64,000 bases of DNA from a virus (IMGVR_UViG_3300046533_000294:63386-127385); one strand, 5' to 3'. Numbered from the stretch's first letter, positions 1 through 63,774 are shown. Notes: generated from the letters alone by a model not told the origin. Made by a program: numbers and translations.

Positions 1-76
1 TCCTTCGTTTTGTTTTTATTTGGTTCTGTGTCTGCTGACACAAGCCGCTACACGTTGTCCTGAGTAGCAGCTTCTA

Positions 77-397
77 TCAGTTGACGATACTGTGATCCTT
101 GATGCTGATCCAGCCGCATTCGCCTTCAATACACATCACGATTCCTCGCAATGTCGGTCTGCTGTCAAGCCCTTCGCCGCCGCCATAGCGGTTGCTAGGA
201 TCGAAATCACTGATCCAGACACAGATTTCATATCCGAGTTGCTCGGCGTAACAGTAGAAGATGATCTGATCACCTTGGACACCAGCTACTGTCCAGTGAG
301 GGCTGACATATTCGCCTTCATACTGATTGGCGATCCAGTCAGCTTTGACTTCGCGGTCAGTTGCTGTCCAAACTTTTGCTATGAACTCTGGCTTCAT
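77..397 (-). CDS. hypothetical early protein (106 aa)
   Basis: Start moved from the ORF track to ATG at 397, preceded by GAAGGAGGG-CCA; the stop lies in the conserved hairpin at 36-79. Confidence 0.75.
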   Translation of the reverse strand: MKPEFIAKVWTATDREVKADWIANQYEGEYVSPHWTVAGVQGDQIIFYCYAEQLGYEICVWISDFDPSNRYGGGEGLDSRPTLRGIVMCIEGECGWISIKDHSIVN

Positions 398-462
398 TGG
401 CCCTCCTTCGTTTTTGTGTTCTGTAGTACAAGCCGCGTCGGTTGTCCACGACGCAGCTTCTG

Positions 463-561
463 CTACAGATGTCCGACTGCGCGCCCAATGAGTGCGCAGA
501 TGATGACGACGATTGGCGCAGCCGTGATATACGTTGGCCAAGCATCTTTCCACTTGTACAT
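463..561 (-). CDS. small membrane peptide (32 aa)
   Basis: MYKWKDAWPTYITAAPIVVIICALIGRAVGHL; SD AAGGAAGG upstream; one hydrophobic helix; stop at the base of hairpin 421-468. Confidence 0.6.
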   Translation of the reverse strand: MYKWKDAWPTYITAAPIVVIICALIGRAVGHL

Positions 562-635
562 GTGTACCTTCCTTTGTTTTTTATCGTTCAAGGCCGAGCG
601 GGTTGTCCTTCGCTCGACCTTCAACGCGCGGCTTG

Positions 636-56798: not shown

Positions 56799-56843
56799 GG
56801 ATCCCTCCTTCGGTAGTGGTGGATTTCAGCCACTTAGTATGAT

Positions 56844-56872
56844 ACTATACAAGTGGCGGGATGGCTAGCCAA
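56844..56872 (-). promoter_or_regulatory. sigma70/SigA-type promoter
   Basis: TTGGCT-17 bp-TATAGT on the minus strand, upstream of the AT-hook gene. Confidence 0.6.
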
Positions 56873-56920
56873 CCATCCCGGCCGAAACCCTTTGATTACC
56901 AGGGGTTTCGACCGGCATGG

Positions 56921-57253
56921 TTATCTCGACAACTCCTTGAGCGCCCATGCTGCGCCTTCAGCGAAGCTCTCGACCTGGTAGCCTGCTGCCACGACCGGCT
57001 CGCCCTTGTAGAGCAGGTACTGGCGAGTCGTGAGCGTTCGCTCGCGCTGGTTGTACGGCTCTTGTGCGAGACGGACAACCGTGAGATCGCCGTTGTCGAT
57101 CTGGAGCAGCTTCGGGTGTTCCTTGGCGACATGGATGCAGGCCTGGTTGTGAGTATCGAACTTGATCTTGCAGGCCTCACATAGCTTCATCTGCACGACC
57201 TTGAGCCCTGGAAACTCGAATGACTGAACCCAGCCAGCTTCTTCCTTGAGCAT
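56921..57253 (-). CDS. hypothetical early protein
   Basis: GAAGGAGGGTCA-ATG. Confidence 0.7.
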   Translation of the reverse strand: MLKEEAGWVQSFEFPGLKVVQMKLCEACKIKFDTHNQACIHVAKEHPKLLQIDNGDLTVVRLAQEPYNQRERTLTTRQYLLYKGEPVVAAGYQVESFAEGAAWALKELSR

Positions 57254-57313
57254 TGACCCTCCTTCTGGAGTTCTGATGAACTCCGAGCCTACCCTAGTGG
57301 GTAGACTCGCAGC

Positions 57314-57826
57314 TCACTTGAGGCTGCTGTACGCTGCCTTGAACCAGTTCATCGCCGTGCCCGTGTCGAGGCTGGAGTCGTTGTACTCGATGATGAGCGA
57401 CTCCAGCTGCTCGATGCTGTAGCCCTTGATGTCATCGTTGCTGATATGTTGGTCTTCGTACTCGTCGCCTCTGTATTCTGTCGTCACGGGTCGAGCATCG
57501 ACAGGGATCGCCAACGCGAGTGCAAGCAGCGACTTCTCCAGTGCCTTCAATCTGGCCTTGGGGTAGTTCTGGTCGCCTCTGAAGTAGACCGACGGGTTGT
57601 TGATCGACGGGCAGTATGCCATCAAACCCGAATCGTAGTCGTCAGACTTCGCGATGACGACACGCGCGAGCTTCGAGTTGATGACCGCGAGGCCGACGGC
57701 ACAACCATCTGGCTTCTTGTTTCCGTTGGCTTCTGCTTCCTGCATCAGCTCGCCACAGAGCCAGTGTCCGGCCCTGATGTCCAGGATGGACTCCTCCAGG
57801 ACGACCTTGGCTGTCATTCTCGGCAT
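57314..57826 (-). CDS. hypothetical protein, paralog of 60533-61222 (DUF6197-like)
   Basis: W.CG.L...NG.KKP.GCA.GL, LALAIP and YND...WF motifs shared. Confidence 0.7.
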   Translation of the reverse strand: MPRMTAKVVLEESILDIRAGHWLCGELMQEAEANGNKKPDGCAVGLAVINSKLARVVIAKSDDYDSGLMAYCPSINNPSVYFRGDQNYPKARLKALEKSLLALALAIPVDARPVTTEYRGDEYEDQHISNDDIKGYSIEQLESLIIEYNDSSLDTGTAMNWFKAAYSSLK

Positions 57827-57967
57827 TGACCCTCCTTCGTTACGGTACTCTCATGAGCACCGGGCCTGCCCCGAAGGACAGACCCGCTGATCACTTTCGC
57901 CAACGCTCCCGAATAATTAGCCACATTATGCGGAACCAACGCGGCGATAGGAAGATTGGCGGTTGTG

Positions 57968-58228
57968 TCACTTGCTGTGCACCACCATGACCAGGCGTTC
58001 GATCGGGATGCTGGCCTGCTTGCCCTTTGCAGGGCCGTTCTTGGGCCAGAACTTCACCCAACGATTCTCATGCTCGTCGTTGAAGAACTCGACGGGCTTG
58101 AATCGGTCAGTGCCGGTTGTAGGTCTCATTTTGGCGATCGAATAGATGGCGTTGTCGCCTGCTTCCTCGACCACGATCGCCTCGATGTTGTACAAGACGA
58201 CGTTCTCCTGTTCCTGCTGTACGACCAT
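57968..58228 (-). CDS. hypothetical protein
   Basis: 86 aa, TAATG coupling. Confidence 0.6.
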   Translation of the reverse strand: MVVQQEQENVVLYNIEAIVVEEAGDNAIYSIAKMRPTTGTDRFKPVEFFNDEHENRWVKFWPKNGPAKGKQASIPIERLVMVVHSK

Positions 58229-58476
58229 TATGCCTCCGTGAACTGGTGAGTCGCCACGGGCTCGGTGCTATCCGGGTCGAACAATTCGACTCCGATGTCA
58301 CCGCTCTCGTGGCGATGGATGAATAAGCCGAAGATCACACGGTTGTCGATCTTGAAGATGAGGTCGTGCTCCCAATCCATCATTTCTGGTAACACCGGAA
58401 GCTGGATCGCAGCTGTGACATCAGCCTCATCATACGGAACGACTTTGATCTTGAGGAGCTTCGGCGGATTCGTCAC
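58228..58476 (-). CDS. hypothetical protein
   Basis: 82 aa; frame continues from the consensus RBS at ~58487. Confidence 0.6.
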   Translation of the reverse strand: MTNPPKLLKIKVVPYDEADVTAAIQLPVLPEMMDWEHDLIFKIDNRVIFGLFIHRHESGDIGVELFDPDSTEPVATHQFTEA

Positions 58477-58556
58477 TTCAGCATGACCCTCCTTCGCTGT
58501 ACTCGGAGTCGGGTGACTCCAGCCCCCGGTGACCGCAGAGACACCGGGAGCTGCAA

Positions 58557-58781
58557 CTACCCGACCTGCTGTACGGGGTAGTGCGGCTTGATGTGCTTGT
58601 TGATATAGCTGCCGACGCTTCGAGCGTTAGCAGCCACAACGGCACGTTGGTATGGCACGCCTGTGTAGGCGTACGTCTTGTCGCTCTTGTACGTGACGTA
58701 CATGATGCTCTTGTCACTGTCCCAAGAGATCGACTTGACATTGCTGGAATGAGGAACTGGAATCGGCCTTGGTGTACTCAT
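58557..58781 (-). CDS. KTSC-domain protein
   Basis: SSNVKSISWD....YV.YK....Y.Y.GVP........SVGSYINKHIK. Confidence 0.85.
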   Translation of the reverse strand: MSTPRPIPVPHSSNVKSISWDSDKSIMYVTYKSDKTYAYTGVPYQRAVVAANARSVGSYINKHIKPHYPVQQVG

Positions 58782-58861
58782 GGCGTCACCAGCTCGATCG
58801 CGTCCTTGACATGATGAAGCAGAACGAGGATCTCGAACAGCAGAAGATACACGTGTCTCAT
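58778..58861 (-). CDS. hydrophobic peptide (27 aa)
   Basis: MRHVYLLLFEILVLLHHVKDAIELVTP; ATGA overlaps at both ends. Confidence 0.5.
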   Translation of the reverse strand: MRHVYLLLFEILVLLHHVKDAIELVTP

Positions 58862-59055
58862 TTCGCACGCGCTTCCCCGGCCATGAACCGCTTGGCTGCT
58901 TCCTTTGGCTTCATCCCCACCATGTACCAGTCGTGCAACAGATCTTCGTCGCACTCGTCGCGCATGGTCAGGTAGATTTCACCCGTTTCAGCCTCGCGCA
59001 TCTTGCTGACTTGATCGCCGAAGCGATCGCTCCAGTGAGTGAACGTGTAGCTCAT
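58858..59055 (-). CDS. hypothetical protein
   Basis: 65 aa, coupled. Confidence 0.6.
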   Translation of the reverse strand: MSYTFTHWSDRFGDQVSKMREAETGEIYLTMRDECDEDLLHDWYMVGMKPKEAAKRFMAGEARAK

Positions 59056-59186
59056 GATGCGTACTTCCTTCTCTTCAACTCAGAGAGGATCGCAGGCATG
59101 AACGTTTTGGGCACGTTCCCTGTTCTGACTAGGCCGAGGATCTCATCGAGCGAGAGTCGCCGCAGATACCAGCGAAACTCGTTCAT
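59052..59186 (-). CDS. hypothetical protein (44 aa)
   Basis: MNEFRWYLRRLSLDEILGLVRTG...; ATGA overlaps on both sides. Confidence 0.55.
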   Translation of the reverse strand: MNEFRWYLRRLSLDEILGLVRTGNVPKTFMPAILSELKRRKYAS

Positions 59187-59386
59187 GTGATCACCTTGTT
59201 GGCCTTCAGCAGATCCACGATCGTCTGGCGGTCGGCGTTGACGTTGCCAGTACGAGCGAGCCAGAGACAGTAATCGATGATCTCTCCTCGGTTCTTGTAC
59301 TCAACGCTGAAGATCTCCTTGTTGCTGGCGGTCTTCACCGTCACGACGTGTCCGACACGAGTCACGCTGATGTTCACTTGCGCCAT
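59183..59386 (-). CDS. hypothetical protein
   Basis: 67 aa, coupled. Confidence 0.6.
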   Translation of the reverse strand: MAQVNISVTRVGHVVTVKTASNKEIFSVEYKNRGEIIDYCLWLARTGNVNADRQTIVDLLKANKVIT

Positions 59387-59916
59387 CACCAACCCTCTTT
59401 CGCTGCGCAGATCGGGCCGATGCCTCTTGCTCGACTCTGCTCATCGGTGAGAGTCCGTCCGCAAATCCCGCACTTGCCCAGCTCACGCCCGTAGCGCATG
59501 CTGGCTTCTGCCGGATTCTTGGAGATCTCGGTCATGATGGACTTCTTGTGCTCCGTGTTTTTGATCGGATAACGCTCATCCGAAGCACGGACGTTCAGGA
59601 AGGTGTAGCCTGCCCACTTGCCCTCAGTCGGCTTGTCTACGTGGTAGAACTTCAGGACATCGTCCATCGGATCGACCACGGCATACCTGCCGGCCGGGAC
59701 ATCAGGCCAATCTCTACTGACCTGCTTCTTGGGACATGCCTTTAGCCCGTCGATGATTCGACTGGCCTCACCCTTGGTGAGCTTCCGTCCACCGAGATGG
59801 ACTCGGGCAATGAACTCAGCCTGCTCATCCGACATCTCGTGTTTCTGTGAGAGGTCGTGGATGAACTCTAGCTGGCTCTCCGATGCTGGATCCTCTGTCC
59901 AGGCTGTCGTTGCCAT
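59386..59916 (-). CDS. DUF6011-like protein
   Basis: C-terminal CGICGRTLTD..SRARGIGP.C; consensus RBS. Confidence 0.75.
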   Translation of the reverse strand: MATTAWTEDPASESQLEFIHDLSQKHEMSDEQAEFIARVHLGGRKLTKGEASRIIDGLKACPKKQVSRDWPDVPAGRYAVVDPMDDVLKFYHVDKPTEGKWAGYTFLNVRASDERYPIKNTEHKKSIMTEISKNPAEASMRYGRELGKCGICGRTLTDEQSRARGIGPICAAKEGW

Positions 59917-59990
59917 ACTCCCCTCCTTCGTGGTTGATGCTCGGCTGAGCACCGAGCCTACCCGTCGTGTCGGACGGACAGACTCGCTGA

Positions 59991-60194
59991 TCAGGTTGGC
60001 TCGTAGATGAATGGTTCGTCTCCGAAGTTGCCCACCCACTTGTCGGGGCTGAGCAGCTTCGGGTACCAGATGTCAACCATCAGCTCGCAGCCCGCGTCCG
60101 TGTTATCGAACTTGAGCTTGAACATCGGGTTGCCCTTGGTGTCAGCAACGATGATCTCTGACTCGTCCTGATGGAGAGTAACTATCTGTGGCAT
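59991..60194 (-). CDS. hypothetical protein
   Basis: 67 aa; TGATG coupling; stop inside a hairpin. Confidence 0.6.
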   Translation of the reverse strand: MPQIVTLHQDESEIIVADTKGNPMFKLKFDNTDAGCELMVDIWYPKLLSPDKWVGNFGDEPFIYEPT

Positions 60195-60469
60195 CAGAAC
60201 ACGCTGATGATCATGGCGCTGTCTTCCACAACGCCGTCTCGGTGGAGCGAATCGACTTTCAGGATCACTCTGATGCCATCGTCGTGAAGACTCGGGGTGA
60301 CCTTGAAGATCTTTTCGCTCTCTGAATCCGCGATGAAGAACGAGCCGCGATCGCTCTTCGCATCGTCGCTGATCCATGCCAGCATGAGCGTCGGCTGCGC
60401 TTCGTCGTGAAACGAGATCGTCTCAAGATCGTCGTTGACCGTGAACTTGTCTGATCTGACTTCGTCCAT
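60194..60469 (-). CDS. acidic hypothetical protein
   Basis: GAAGGAGGGTCA-ATG. Confidence 0.7.
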   Translation of the reverse strand: MDEVRSDKFTVNDDLETISFHDEAQPTLMLAWISDDAKSDRGSFFIADSESEKIFKVTPSLHDDGIRVILKVDSLHRDGVVEDSAMIISVF

Positions 60470-60532
60470 TGACCCTCCTTCTGGTGTTCTGTCTGAACAC
60501 CGAGCCCATCCTTGTTGGGATGGACTCGCTGG

Positions 60533-61222
60533 TCAGGCGTCGCCCTCGTACATCTCGACCAAAGCGTCTTCGGTGTCGCTGTTGGTCGGGTAGCACTGCT
60601 GACAAGACGGATCTTCACAGCCGTCCTCGTCCTGCATCCACGTCGAGGCCTGCTTGCCGGCGGATCGGCGCAGACGTGCGATGCCGATGGCGTTGCAGAA
60701 CCACGACGCTGCATCGCCTCTCGTGATGTCGTCGTCGTTGTAGGCGACAACGCAGTCGGCAGCTCCTGAAACGTCGTGAGGGATGTTATCCGCCCACTTG
60801 TCGTACGCCTCATCGACTTCGTTGTACCAGCCAGCCTTACTGACGGTGATCTCTTTCGGGATCGCCAGCGCGAGGCATACGATCGCCTCTGCTGTCGTTG
60901 AAGTCGCGTACAGATCGCTCTGCTCGAAGATGCCCTGGACTTCGTACTGTCCAGTCGGCACGTCCTTGCCGATCTCGTTGTCCCACAGCCTCACTACTCT
61001 GGTAGAGAAGCTAGCCAGACCGCCGTTCATGCCGATCAGGCCGAGAGCGCAGCCCTCGGGCTTCTTATGCCCGTTGAGCACACAGGCTCGCGTGAGCGTG
61101 CCGCAGATCCAGCTCCAGGGGATGTCGTTGTACGACAGCTCCAGGATCTCAACTGCGTCATCACCCACACGATCGAGTGCGAACTCCAGCACGCCCGGTG
61201 ACGTCTCGATCAATGGTGGCAT
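60533..61222 (-). CDS. hypothetical protein, paralog of 57314-57826
   Basis: Shared motifs; consensus RBS. Confidence 0.7.
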   Translation of the reverse strand: MPPLIETSPGVLEFALDRVGDDAVEILELSYNDIPWSWICGTLTRACVLNGHKKPEGCALGLIGMNGGLASFSTRVVRLWDNEIGKDVPTGQYEVQGIFEQSDLYATSTTAEAIVCLALAIPKEITVSKAGWYNEVDEAYDKWADNIPHDVSGAADCVVAYNDDDITRGDAASWFCNAIGIARLRRSAGKQASTWMQDEDGCEDPSCQQCYPTNSDTEDALVEMYEGDA

Positions 61223-61300
61223 AACCCTCCTTCGGTTGTTGTTACTGGTGCCTGGTGAGCACCGAGCCTATCCGATCCATCGGACGGACAGACTCGCTAC

Positions 61301-61444
61301 TCACTTCCTTTGCTCTTTCTCGCAGTCGTCGCAGATTCCAGACACGACGTTGCTACCACGAGCCTGAGCCATGGCCAGGTCGTGGCCGGTGACTTGGACG
61401 TACTTGATCTTGTGGCAAACGGTGCAGTAGCCAACGAGTCTCAT
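61301..61444 (-). CDS. small Zn-binding protein (47 aa)
   Basis: CTVCH...CDDC; not in the ORF track; stop inside a hairpin. Confidence 0.6.
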   Translation of the reverse strand: MRLVGYCTVCHKIKYVQVTGHDLAMAQARGSNVVSGICDDCEKEQRK

Positions 61445-61677
61445 CCCGGGCACTCGCTTTCGAGATGAACGAGATCGAGATCACCTTGGCTATCAAGAGC
61501 ATCGTAGTGCCTCAGCCCGTGTTTAATGGGCACGCGAACCCGGTTGGGCTCACGCTTCCATGTCTGCACTTGACCATTCACCTTCCAGCGTTGGCAAGTG
61601 CCATCGCTGTTCCTGTTGATGTCGTGGTGAAGGATCTGGCCACGCTTCAGGCTTTTTGCTTGCTCCAACGTGATCAT
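61441..61677 (-). CDS. hypothetical protein
   Basis: 78 aa from ATG 61677, coupled. Confidence 0.65.
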   Translation of the reverse strand: MITLEQAKSLKRGQILHHDINRNSDGTCQRWKVNGQVQTWKREPNRVRVPIKHGLRHYDALDSQGDLDLVHLESECPG

Positions 61678-61910
61678 GTCGACACCTGGCCTTGGGGCGA
61701 GATGCCGCCATAAATCGGCTGGCCATGATCCGTCCAGTGCATCGTGAAGCACAGATAGTTGTCTGGCAGATCGAGTCCGCCTTTCTGAACAACCACGTTT
61801 TCAAGTTTCGGATTGTTCAGGATAACATCAATGCTGTGCTTCTGTGCAGTCGTCATGGTGTTGAATGCCTCTTGCGTCATCTTGACCTTGATCACTTGTG
61901 TGACCTCCAT
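61674..61910 (-). CDS. hypothetical protein
   Basis: 78 aa. Confidence 0.6.
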   Translation of the reverse strand: MEVTQVIKVKMTQEAFNTMTTAQKHSIDVILNNPKLENVVVQKGGLDLPDNYLCFTMHWTDHGQPIYGGISPQGQVST

Positions 61911-62275
61911 GCGACGATTCTGTCTCCGGGCATGAACACGACTGGCTTTTCCATCTGTGAATGAAGGAAGCGATGCTTGTGCTTAACAACTTGCTCGCCC
62001 TTCTCCACCAGGCCACAATCACCCTCGATGTAGTACACACCGAATTGGAAAGTGACATAGTGCTCGAACTCTTGCCCTGACCACTTCGATCCGAGCTTGT
62101 TGTCTGGATCGAATGTCCAGGTGCCGAGGTCAGCGAACTTCTTGCCAGTCTGATATTCCCGGTCAGCATCTTCGTCCATGTAGGCCACGGTGTAGCAGAA
62201 GTCAAGCATCTGCTGATCCCAGATGAGATCCTTGCGACGCTTGCCTTTTCGCTCCACATAGATGTTGAGTGGCAT
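61892..62275 (-). CDS. hypothetical protein
   Basis: 127 aa after a GAAGGAGGG RBS. Confidence 0.65.
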   Translation of the reverse strand: MPLNIYVERKGKRRKDLIWDQQMLDFCYTVAYMDEDADREYQTGKKFADLGTWTFDPDNKLGSKWSGQEFEHYVTFQFGVYYIEGDCGLVEKGEQVVKHKHRFLHSQMEKPVVFMPGDRIVAWRSHK

Positions 62276-62348
62276 TTTGCTGGCCCTCCTTCGTGGCGTC
62301 TTATGAACACCGGCCCCACAGATCGTAGCTGACCTGTGGAGCCGCTAT

Positions 62349-62573
62349 TCACTCTTCACTACCTGGTTGATCTCGAACGATGTACAGCTTCGGCTTTGAA
62401 GCCTTGGGAACTGGAATCCGCTTGGGCGTAATCGGCTTCGACTTCACTGGTTCGTTCCCGTCAAAGAACACGGTCTTGACTACCTTGTTATGTCTCGACC
62501 ACCAGCCGAGAATGAAACACAGTATGAGAATCGAGCCGGGAATGTCGATGAAGATGAACTTCACGACACTCAC
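62349..62573 (-). CDS. membrane protein (74 aa)
   Basis: GTG overlaps the stop of an 11-codon minigene; N-terminal hydrophobic helix. Confidence 0.55.
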   Translation of the reverse strand: MSVVKFIFIDIPGSILILCFILGWWSRHNKVVKTVFFDGNEPVKSKPITPKRIPVPKASKPKLYIVRDQPGSEE

Positions 62574-62673
62574 CTTCGATCGGTTCTGTTCCCCAGTCGT
62601 ATCATTTGACCCTCCTTCGGATGATGCTCGGATGAGCACCCGCCAACACACTCTGCGATGTGCCAGCGGCTGA

Positions 62674-62916
62674 TCAGTTGCGTACCCGAACAGCGATGTA
62701 GTCGCGCAGCTTTCCGTTCTTGTTTAGGATCGTGGCTGTCCAGTCTTTGGCGTCACTGTAGTCCGTTTTGCGCTGTCGAATGATCGCTTGCCTGTTCCCC
62801 GCGTAAGCACGCAGGGCATGAAGTGCGGTCGGTGCTTCGACTTCCGCTACTTTGCGGAACTGGTTGTGGGTTCTGCCGTCGTACCACGTTCTGATCTCGA
62901 ACTTGCCTACTGTCAT
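62674..62916 (-). CDS. hypothetical protein
   Basis: 80 aa, ATGA coupling. Confidence 0.6.
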   Translation of the reverse strand: MTVGKFEIRTWYDGRTHNQFRKVAEVEAPTALHALRAYAGNRQAIIRQRKTDYSDAKDWTATILNKNGKLRDYIAVRVRN

Positions 62917-63281
62917 CGGAGCAATACCTCCGGGCCGAACCAGATGTGGTTCATGACGCCGACGAGTCGATGAGAGATCTTGTGTGCCATCCATGAGTCG
63001 CGGTTGGGATTGTCTTCTTCGATGCCGGCGTTCTCTGCCTCGATCTCGATGTTGTCTGTGATCGGAATCAGGATCTGCTTCATGACGTCCTTGGGACATG
63101 CTTCCCAGATGCAGCATGGGTTGCCCCACTTGGCGTCTTCGATCGCAACACGCTCTGCGAGCTTAGGCGTGAGCCCGCGCTCGTGAGCGCACTCCGAGCA
63201 GATCCACGTTCTGACATCGTCGCCTGCGACACCTGTCGTCATCATGGACTGTGGGCAGTCGAAACAGCTTACAATTGCCAT
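62913..63281 (-). CDS. Zn-ribbon-containing hypothetical protein
   Basis: CFDC...CSEC; consensus RBS. Confidence 0.65.
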   Translation of the reverse strand: MAIVSCFDCPQSMMTTGVAGDDVRTWICSECAHERGLTPKLAERVAIEDAKWGNPCCIWEACPKDVMKQILIPITDNIEIEAENAGIEEDNPNRDSWMAHKISHRLVGVMNHIWFGPEVLLR

Positions 63282-63342
63282 GTTCCCTCCTTCGTTTGAT
63301 GAACACCGACAGGCCGGGGGACAACTCCCGGCCCGCCGCTGG

Positions 63343-63696
63343 TCACCGTTTGTATGGCGACAGCGCTTTGACGCGTTGGAGATACTCGGGTGCGTCGTGA
63401 AGCTGTGTGTCCGGTTCGTCACAGGTGTCGAACTGATCGAACTTGTCGATGAGGGCCCACTCGCCAGCTTCACCCATGTAGATGTAGCCGACGAATCTGC
63501 CGTCAATCTTGTACACGTAGCACTCGAAGCCTGTGTCGATGTGAGGATAGTCGCCACCGATGTCTTTGGCTGTTCGTTCTGCTACGCCATTGAGATCAGC
63601 ACGAAACTGCTCCTCAGTCATTTCTCGTCCTGGTACTGGTTGTGGCGGATTCTCCTTGCGGAACTTCACAAGGAAATCTGCTTGCTCCTCGTTCAT
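63343..63696 (-). CDS. hypothetical protein
   Basis: GAAGGAGGGTC-ATG; stop inside a hairpin. Confidence 0.7.
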   Translation of the reverse strand: MNEEQADFLVKFRKENPPQPVPGREMTEEQFRADLNGVAERTAKDIGGDYPHIDTGFECYVYKIDGRFVGYIYMGEAGEWALIDKFDQFDTCDEPDTQLHDAPEYLQRVKALSPYKR

Positions 63697-63774
63697 GACC
63701 CTCCTTCTGTTGGTGATGAACACCGGCCCCGCCATGTCGAACGTCCCTGATCTCCATGACGGAGCCACTGGTCA

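Follow-up and report, generated by a model that had tools for sequence, protein, structure and literature searches.

Repeated RNA module with an invariant G·G mismatch and two competing hairpins between early genes of a probably actinobacterial phage

The early genes of the virus IMGVR_UViG_3300046533_000294 are separated by a repeated RNA module, in which a long hairpin with an invariant G·G mismatch is followed by a second hairpin that competes with its lower stem, and then by a very strong ribosome site. The window (the whole stretch of 64,000 nucleotides that was analysed) corresponds to positions 63,386-127,385 of an IMG/VR virus record that is one contig of 129,757 bp. Self-comparison of this record revealed two collinear genomes of about 65 kb, arranged head-to-tail and 73-93% identical per block; copy A denotes record positions 1 to about 65,089, and copy B the remainder. 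Within the window, copy A contributes its right end (positions 1 to about 1,700) and copy B everything after that. The feature is genuine and has solid statistical support; its function we infer: the modules may serve as processing and stabilising sites on early mRNA, a reading that is favoured tentatively. An earlier, sequence-only reading of the window had described the array of covarying hairpins; the second hairpin, a U·G wobble five pairs above the G·G, the two subtypes and the two-genome structure of the record are points beyond it.

A loose pattern combined with folding identified 21 canonical copies in the record, all of them on the minus (gene) strand and in two early-gene arrays, with 10 in copy B (nine within the window) and 11 in copy A. 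The ten elements at 57277-63774 and three at 36-626 of the sequence-only reading were borne out: nine of the ten are canonical, one is a variant, and the other three are of a second subtype. Subtype 2 is characterized by a conserved GGACAAC loop; its three copies in the first 626 bases of the window belong to copy A, and four counterparts were found past the window's end. The variant and subtype 2 have other sequences and the same geometry, that is, G·G, four pairs and U·G. With both included, the copy number per genome is 10-14.

The long hairpin consists of a lower stem of 6 bp, the G·G mismatch and an upper stem of 11-17 bp, which gives 16-21 bp in total in the canonical copies; the minimum upper stem of 11 bp corresponds to about one helical turn. 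When the stem pairs of the 21 canonical copies are numbered from the base, positions 1-3 are invariant (UGA/UCA), position 4 is unpaired in about half of the copies, position 5 is C-G, U-G or U-A, and position 6 is A-U, replaced by U-A in three copies. Position 7 is G·G in all copies, in agreement with the sequence-only reading, and the mismatch also persists in related phages. Above it, positions 8-9 are mainly C-G and G-C, position 12 is a U·G wobble in 19 of 21 copies and position 13 is mainly C-G. Free variation with pairing kept is observed at positions 10-11 and from position 14 onward.

This variation is strongly compensatory. When the 21 copies were aligned with MAFFT, 95.8% of cells formed standard pairs, compared with 73.2% in shuffles, and both sides changed in 12 of 17 pairs; on none of five measures did any of 500 shuffles match the observed value. 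When, as a control, the partner was slid by 1-3 columns, pairing fell to 29-42%. The folding z-scores of all elements against shuffles ranged from -3.3 to -8.9. Moreover, in each of the 22 copies compared the sense strand gave the more stable fold, its mean advantage over the antisense strand being 10.2 kcal/mol, and G·U pairs made up 56 of 401 pairs (14%). The advantage of the sense strand, together with the G·U pairs, indicates that the structure is real and belongs to the transcribed strand. The long hairpin is therefore confirmed as a selected structure of the mRNA strand and not a palindrome of the DNA. The earlier claims of pairing kept by compensatory changes, of G·U pairs that favour the transcribed strand, and of a cUUCGg loop in the copy at 57854-57893 were all upheld by these results.

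A covariance model and a search of Rfam and phage databases, which the sequence-only reading had named as its check, gave strong covariation, no Rfam family and copies in six relatives. The model, built from the 21 canonical copies, recovered exactly these copies in the record, on the gene strand of the two arrays and nowhere else. In six related metagenomic phages (helicase 49-79% identical), about 18 copies were located on the gene strand upstream of the SNF2 helicase gene. After the relatives had been added, the 38 distinct copies were 96.4% paired and 13 of 17 pairs had double-sided changes, in an alignment that was fitted to the model and hence leans towards the structure. The G·G was present in 39 of 39 model matches. 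A relative with 44% helicase identity (L129) was found to have its own version with the UGA, the lower stem and the G·G. A broader covariance model detected no copies in relatives whose helicase is less than about 49% identical, and the subtype-2 pattern gave no convincing copies in the records of three relatives. A scan of viral contigs with a pattern of the 3' arm plus the Shine-Dalgarno sequence (SD) was set aside, as it returned single, chance-like matches only. In Rfam, no match reached the gathering score over the window, and no relevant match was obtained at E up to 5 in the region of 57-64 kb. The element is absent from Streptomyces phage Gibson, the nearest isolate checked, and from more distant relatives. 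The RNA family has not been previously described and is absent from Rfam; in general terms it is of a known kind, the intercistronic elements for processing or stability in the early mRNA of phages. As a separate observation, the early genes of Gibson (record 50000-69439) carry hairpins followed by a recurring promoter-like motif, AAAGAATCTT...TAG; these look like terminator-promoter units, and the arrangement differs from that described here.

The second hairpin of the module involves the 3' strand of the lower stem, GGUGYUC, which includes the mismatched G and the G above it, and which is complementary to GARYRCC located 4-5 bases downstream. The resulting hairpin 2 has 6-8 bp in this phage, and up to 10 bp in one relative, and precedes the GAAGGAGGG ribosome site. 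With at least 6 bp, it was found in 16 of the 21 canonical copies of this record and in each of the 12 relatives' copies examined; the variant and one subtype-2 locus have it as well. In a 35-copy alignment, in which copies lacking hairpin 2 were included, 79.7% of the hairpin-2 cells were paired, compared with 32-43% when the partner was slid. Double-sided changes numbered 21, against 9.5 +/- 3.0 in shuffles, and none of the 500 shuffles reached 21. Position 6 provides a three-way change: the 5' arm, the 3' arm and the downstream partner read A, U and A in 23 cases and U, A and U in four, and the 5' and 3' arms are never mismatched there. At position 4 the long hairpin is often mismatched and the hairpin-2 pair is kept. 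In every subtype, hairpin 2 begins at the mismatched G or 1-2 nt above it. The lower stem of the long hairpin and hairpin 2 are mutually exclusive; the computed energy difference between the two folds ranges from -7.7 to +2.8 kcal/mol, and the upper stem with an abutting hairpin 2 is the minimum-energy fold in 9 of 21 copies. The covariation of both helices indicates that both are selected. The module is either a switch or a pair of structures that exist before and after an event.

The first of these options, a junction switch that is actuated by the ribosome and works without cleavage, is considered unlikely. Such a switch would report the translation of the upstream cistron to the next one, by coupling or insulating the two, or would ease termination for the following ribosomes. 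Because the UGA lies in the 5' base of the stem, a terminating ribosome must open the lower stem, and the freed 3' strand would snap into hairpin 2. The UGA stands at the stem base in essentially all canonical copies, while other genes also use TAA or TAG, which speaks for a switch, as do the three-way covariation and the closeness of the two folds in energy, the alternative one being the minimum in nine copies. A read-out is conceivable where the hairpin-2 partner CUCC can pair with the GGAG of the SD while the long hairpin is closed, and this is the case in three copies (57277-57316 and two in copy A). In most copies, however, the SD is free in both folds and no read-out is evident. Some copies have no hairpin 2, and the next start codon has no frame relation to the UGA (frames 0, 1 and 2 among the 11 copies computed), which also argues against a switch. 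Masking of the SD by the hairpin-2 partner was rejected as a general feature, since it is seen in three copies only. Translational readthrough, selenocysteine incorporation at a selenocysteine insertion sequence (SECIS) and bypass were likewise rejected: in the 11 copies computed, the next start is in frame 0, 1 or 2 without preference, and five have in-frame stops.

The position of the modules relative to genes is equally regular. They sit between co-directional small open reading frames (ORFs), and in essentially every canonical copy the upstream ORF terminates on the UGA at the stem base. The earlier claim that the upstream stop codon forms the base of the stem therefore stands for most copies; in the hairpin at 63717-63774 the UGA is a second in-frame stop directly after the real UAG stop, and the case of 57854-57893 is less sure, because the ORF that ends on its UGA (57891-58061) overlaps an 86-aa gene and may not be real. 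Genes located between two hairpins overlap at ATGA or GTGA junctions and have weaker ribosome sites. Therefore, a cassette comprises a strong ribosome site, 1-5 coupled genes, and the UGA with its hairpin. The sequence GAAGGAGGG occurs 14 times in the window, where 0.6 occurrences are expected; in the record this 9-mer is present 33 times, always on the minus strand, and 32 of the 33 are in the two early arrays. It is almost exclusively the site of the first gene of early cassettes, and inner and structural genes use weaker sites. A conserved sequence between hairpin and start codon, noticed already in the sequence-only reading, was recovered as GAAGGAGGG, 6-22 nt downstream of each canonical hairpin, with GAAGGAGG likewise 6-22 nt after the hairpin (median 11).

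The 9 nt that follow the stem contain on average 1.2 U and at most 3 U, so that there is no U-tract, and scans for terminators and promoters flagged no module. Taken together, this means that the modules are neither canonical terminators nor promoters, and the possibility that they are simple intrinsic terminators, which the sequence-only reading had itself named as the outcome that would speak against it, can be put aside. Terminators or attenuators without U-tails, as in the early region of actinophage phiC31, are a further option, suggested by the stable GC-rich hairpins directly after stop codons and by a precedent known from the title of Ingham et al. (1995), listed in PMC3993855. We consider it very improbable. 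Apart from the missing U-tract and the empty terminator scan, the 6-22 nt before the SD leave no room for a promoter, and efficient termination would therefore leave the remainder of the array silent. According to the title of PMC3993855, a U-tract is a requirement of mycobacterial RNA polymerase at intrinsic terminators. Neither the conserved G·G nor the lower stem would be necessary for termination.

What we tentatively favour, as a possibility rather than as an established role, is that the modules are sites at which early mRNA is processed and stabilised by a host endonuclease of the RNase III type, and that the downstream piece, once cut, refolds to give a protected 5' end. A double-strand-specific host enzyme would recognise the long hairpin, of roughly 18-22 bp, and cut at or next to the G·G. 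If the cut fell at or just above the mismatch on the 3' side, the upper hairpin would remain on the upstream piece as a block to 3' exonucleases. The downstream piece would then carry GGUGYUC at its new 5' end and, having lost the partner strand, would fold into hairpin 2. A 5' hairpin combined with a strong ribosome site protects RNA against 5'-end-dependent decay in many bacteria, and hairpin 2 with the very strong site behind it may shield the downstream piece in the same way. The early transcript would in this manner be split into cassettes, each separately stable and separately translated. As a by-product or second function, the module sequences could provide short patches of homology for the exchange of cassettes between related phages. 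Such a cut-and-refold model accounts for the covariation of three segments and for the position of hairpin 2, whose start coincides with the mismatched G in all subtypes. Genes for RNase III or for proteins with a double-stranded-RNA-binding domain (dsRBD) were not found in the phage, and an enzyme of the host would therefore be used. The processing or protection sites proposed in the sequence-only reading thus keep their T7-like anatomy, their place in an intercistronic early array and their distinction from terminators, while no phage RNase III or dsRBD protein accompanies them.

Several points weigh against processing by RNase III. Five copies have no convincing hairpin 2. To our knowledge, an invariant G·G is not a determinant of RNase III cleavage. 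The distance from the loop to the G·G varies from 11 to 17 bp, so that the enzyme would have to measure from the mismatch and not from the loop. A switch without a cut would also fit the small energy difference between the two folds. The runs listed as containing the sequence include no RNA runs. A broader formulation, rather less likely in our view than processing as such, unites several of these elements in a two-state junction. The G·G would mark the target of a nuclease or another protein, and the terminating ribosome or the cut would flip the junction, through strand displacement, to two abutting hairpins, with the unpaired G acting as a toehold, which would amount to a general device of operon punctuation that has not been described before. 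If this were true, the stability and translation of a cassette would depend on events at the preceding cistron. The two-state model, if it holds, would also illustrate the division of a single long transcript into units that are each stabilised and translated on their own, and would supply a compact part of natural origin, an insulator or a processing element, for expressing polycistronic messages in high-GC Gram-positive bacteria. The invariant single mismatch is an obvious mutational handle.

The constancy of the mismatch also raises the question of recognition by a phage-encoded RNA-binding protein, which would shut off or activate early genes in the manner of T4 RegA or RegB and would recognise the G·G, the 4 bp above it and the U·G. 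The G·G is invariant, and the U·G nearly so, across three subtypes that otherwise differ in sequence, and the special 9-nt SD is confined to early genes; both facts are in line with such a protein. The apical loops of subtype 1 vary freely, and recognition would therefore have to take place in the stem. On the other side, the U·G is lost in several of the relatives' copies that keep the G·G, and no RNA-binding or nuclease domain was found in the scanned proteins: Pfam and PHROG scans of 28 proteins detected no RNA-related domain. Most early proteins are orphans, and the absence of such a domain is therefore weak evidence. On balance we regard such a protein-binding site as quite improbable. 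Among ten early-array proteins scanned, the sole family match was that of a 176-aa protein encoded at 59386-59916 on the minus strand, which has a C-terminal DUF6011 domain (PHROG 636, function unknown).

Comparison of the two genome copies shows that the modules are also joints at which the arrays differ. Of the 20 ends of homology blocks between copies A and B, 8 are no more than 10 nt away from a module (permutation p ~0.004), where modules with a 10-nt margin cover 14% of the array. Two breakpoints are within hairpins. At 59946-59993 the copies have the downstream gene and hairpin 2 in common, with different upper stems and upstream genes; at 61256-61303 they have the upstream gene in common and differ in the remainder. 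Copy A has an extra small cassette between two hairpins where copy B has one hairpin. One upper-stem sequence occurs at three sites with unrelated flanks on both sides. In contigs from four soil or rhizosphere runs, several joints are at or beside hairpins or the ribosome site, but every traced joint has the copy-A arrangement, so that these are not independent events. The block ends and the breakpoints inside hairpins identify the modules as joints of the mosaic, and this is consistent with homologous exchange inside the lower arms, which are conserved over 10-15 nt, and the ribosome sites, a mechanism proposed for the promoter-early stem-loops (PeSLs). It does not follow that recombination is the purpose of the modules, since in any phage the joints that survive selection are those at gene borders.

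Gene shuffling, as the sequence-only reading had suggested, is thus supported by the block ends at modules and by the hairpin found in three contexts, while a recombinase of the phage is missing. A primary role as DNA-level recombination sites that move cassettes, whether by attC-like, structure-specific recombination or as PeSL-like homology patches, could draw on the clustering of block ends, on the breakpoints inside hairpins, on one hairpin type in three unrelated contexts and on the extra cassette of copy A flanked by two hairpins. Such a role nevertheless appears highly doubtful, more so than binding of a phage protein. No tyrosine recombinase and no Y1 transposase were found in the record; the sense-strand fold with many G·U pairs and the tight link to hairpin 2 and the SD point to RNA; mosaic joints lie at gene borders in all phages, as other joints are selected against; and the joints in contigs of other samples merely repeat the copy-A arrangement. 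In any case, the two copies provide a record at base-pair resolution of the sites at which accessory cassettes are exchanged between related soil phages.

A unit genome of about 65 kb is deduced from a complete related record of 64,370 bp. Either two co-occurring strains were wrongly joined in the two-genome record or the record is a real heterodimer, and the copy-A arrangement was seen also in contigs from the same samples. The proteins identified include a Mu-type portal, a capsid protein, DnaE, a primase-helicase, an SNF2 helicase and a PD-(D/E)XK nuclease. In the regions of 55.7-64 kb and 1-1,000, every gene is small and on the minus strand, and most are orphans. Among isolated phages, the nearest have Arthrobacter, Streptomyces and Microbacterium as hosts and share only 32-42% amino acid identity (helicase, DnaE); a megablast search of isolated phages gave zero nucleotide matches. 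The sequence occurs in DNA runs that are metagenomes of soil and rhizosphere. An actinobacterial host is probable; for phages of Actinobacteria, the way in which early takeover genes are expressed is very poorly known.

The coordinates of the elements in the window are collected in Table 1.

Table 1. Hairpin elements of the module in the window (positions counted from the first base of the window; RBS, ribosome-binding site).
Element	Position	Strand	RBS	Features
Subtype 2, copy A	36-79	-		UGA base; G·G, AAGC, U·G; GGACAAC loop; own hairpin 2
Subtype 2, copy A	422-467	-	401-409	G·G and an extra C·A mismatch; GGACAAC loop
Subtype 2, copy A	585-626	-		base without UGA; G·G, 4 bp, U·G; GGACAAC loop
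Canonical hairpin 1, B1	57277-57316	-	57257-57265	UGA is stop of 170-aa ORF; position 6 U-A, then G·G; hairpin 2 at ~57267-57284; ATG 57251-57253; E 9e-13; z -7.5
Canonical hairpin 1, B2	57854-57893	-	57830-57838	cUUCGg loop; hairpin 2 of 8 bp
Variant, B3	58507-58565 (core 58514-58559)	-	58487-58495	stop UAG; G·G, 4 bp, U·G; extra outer stem; own hairpin 2 GGAGUC/GACUCC; -41 kcal/mol; z -6.6
Canonical hairpin 1, B4	59946-59993	-	59921-59929	upper stem near-identical to 61256-61303 and to one in copy A; flanks unrelated
Canonical hairpin 1, B5	60494-60535	-	60473-60481	hairpin 2 GGUGUUC/GAACACC; E 6e-14
Canonical hairpin 1, B6	61256-61303	-	61225-61233	
Canonical hairpin 1, B7	62304-62351	-	62284-62292	
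Canonical hairpin 1, B8	62633-62676	-	62610-62618	identical to copy-A counterpart
Canonical hairpin 1, B9	63300-63345	-	63285-63293	without U·G at position 12; no clear hairpin 2; loop contains GUUGUCC, complement of the subtype-2 loop
Canonical hairpin 1, B10	63717-63774	-	63699-63707	longest upper stem; UGA in frame after UAG

Some further observations concern the loops and the intervals between genes. The subtype-2 loop GGACAAC is the exact complement of GUUGUCC in the loop of the hairpin at 63300-63345 and of its copy-A counterpart, and a loop of the GUUGUCC type also occurs in a hairpin ahead of the copy-A helicase gene. In a related phage (L121, near 3514) the GUUGUCC loop is kept on a different stem. 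This complementarity could reflect a kissing-loop contact or a site for a shared protein. The interval at 56812-56920 (minus strand), before a 171-aa gene, has no canonical module; in its place are a GC hairpin, CGGGATGG...CCATCCCG, a palindrome, CCACTT...AAGTGG, and the region's best match to a promoter (TTGGCT, 17 nt, TATAGT). The interval may be an internal promoter or operator and is conserved in copy A. Also conserved there is an AT-richer spacer of about 75 nt (57894-57967, minus strand), which separates the hairpin at 57854-57893 from the stop of the 86-aa gene. This spacer holds the sole terminator-like site of the array that has a T-run (57920-57945) and a possible micro-ORF of 11 codons that ends at the UGA of the hairpin.

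Among known systems, the closest in anatomy are the processing signals of phage T7. As Dunn and Studier are said to have described in 1983, the early mRNA of T7 is cut by RNase III at irregular intercistronic hairpins. Like the T7 signals R0.3, R0.5, R1, R1.1 and R1.3, the modules are intercistronic and present in several copies on one early polycistronic message. In both, the irregular hairpin spans about two turns, its lower stem being separated by an internal non-Watson-Crick element from an upper stem of about one turn, and a ribosome site comes soon after. T7 relies on a host enzyme, and the same is proposed for the modules, whose cleavage is predicted. Unlike the T7 signals, with which they share no sequence or Rfam relationship, the modules have a single G·G in place of an asymmetric internal loop, a stop codon in the stem, an overlapping alternative hairpin and 10-14 copies per genome.

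For phage SP82, Hue et al. reportedly described in 1995 a polypurine 5' stabiliser, a strong SD downstream of the cut that stabilises the downstream RNA. The title of Panganiban and Whiteley (1983), as listed in PMC4838370, places B. subtilis RNase III sites in SP82 early mRNA, and the stabilisation of SP82 mRNA by a strong SD is attributed to Hue et al. (1995) where that work is cited in PMC7509114. The modules resemble the SP82 sites in being repeated, sequence-conserved hairpins between early genes of a phage of a Gram-positive host, with a very strong SD downstream. The phage, the phylum of the host and the sequence differ; the 5' hairpin is proposed here, and the processing role of the modules is predicted.

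In T4-type phages, insertions, deletions and replacements of genes are described at PeSL motifs (PMC2839356, PMC4122927). The modules are likewise repeated composite motifs between small accessory early genes, and cassette changes at them were found, as given above for the block ends. Whereas a PeSL combines a terminator with an early promoter, the modules have neither a promoter nor a U-tract, and carry a conserved RNA fold and a ribosome site.

[quoted passage not shown] The SAS is an SD motif at the starts of non-structural genes, with unknown function, and the arms of the ESAS are conserved in sequence, with little support for mRNA hairpins found by the authors (PMC3203893). In both phage groups, an SD-containing motif is often preceded by an inverted repeat. 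However, the 13-nt SAS, GGGATAGGAGCCC, differs from GAAGGAGGG, and the 17-nt inverted repeats of the ESAS are uncompensated, whereas the inner stems of the module vary and are compensated.

The REP/BIME elements (repetitive extragenic palindromes and bacterial interspersed mosaic elements) of enterobacteria are imperfect palindromes after stop codons in operons, which act as 3' barriers in RNA and have a conserved mismatch in the stem. REPs are chromosomal, are linked to RAYT (REP-associated tyrosine transposase), and come without a coupled second hairpin or an SD. A search for the Y1 (HUH) transposase family PF01797 gave no match in the record, unlike the situation of REPs with RAYT. As for the attC sites of integrons, the tyrosine recombinase family PF00589 had no match in the 129.8-kb record. 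The modules have no R and L boxes (GTTRRRY and its inverse), and their ends are UGAnnAG and GUGYUCA.

Summarizing, the module has particular features in its invariant G·G, the stop codon within the stem, two helices that compete, two subtypes within one array and a high copy number. It would work most like the processing sites of T7 and SP82, evolves like the PeSLs, and belongs to neither family.

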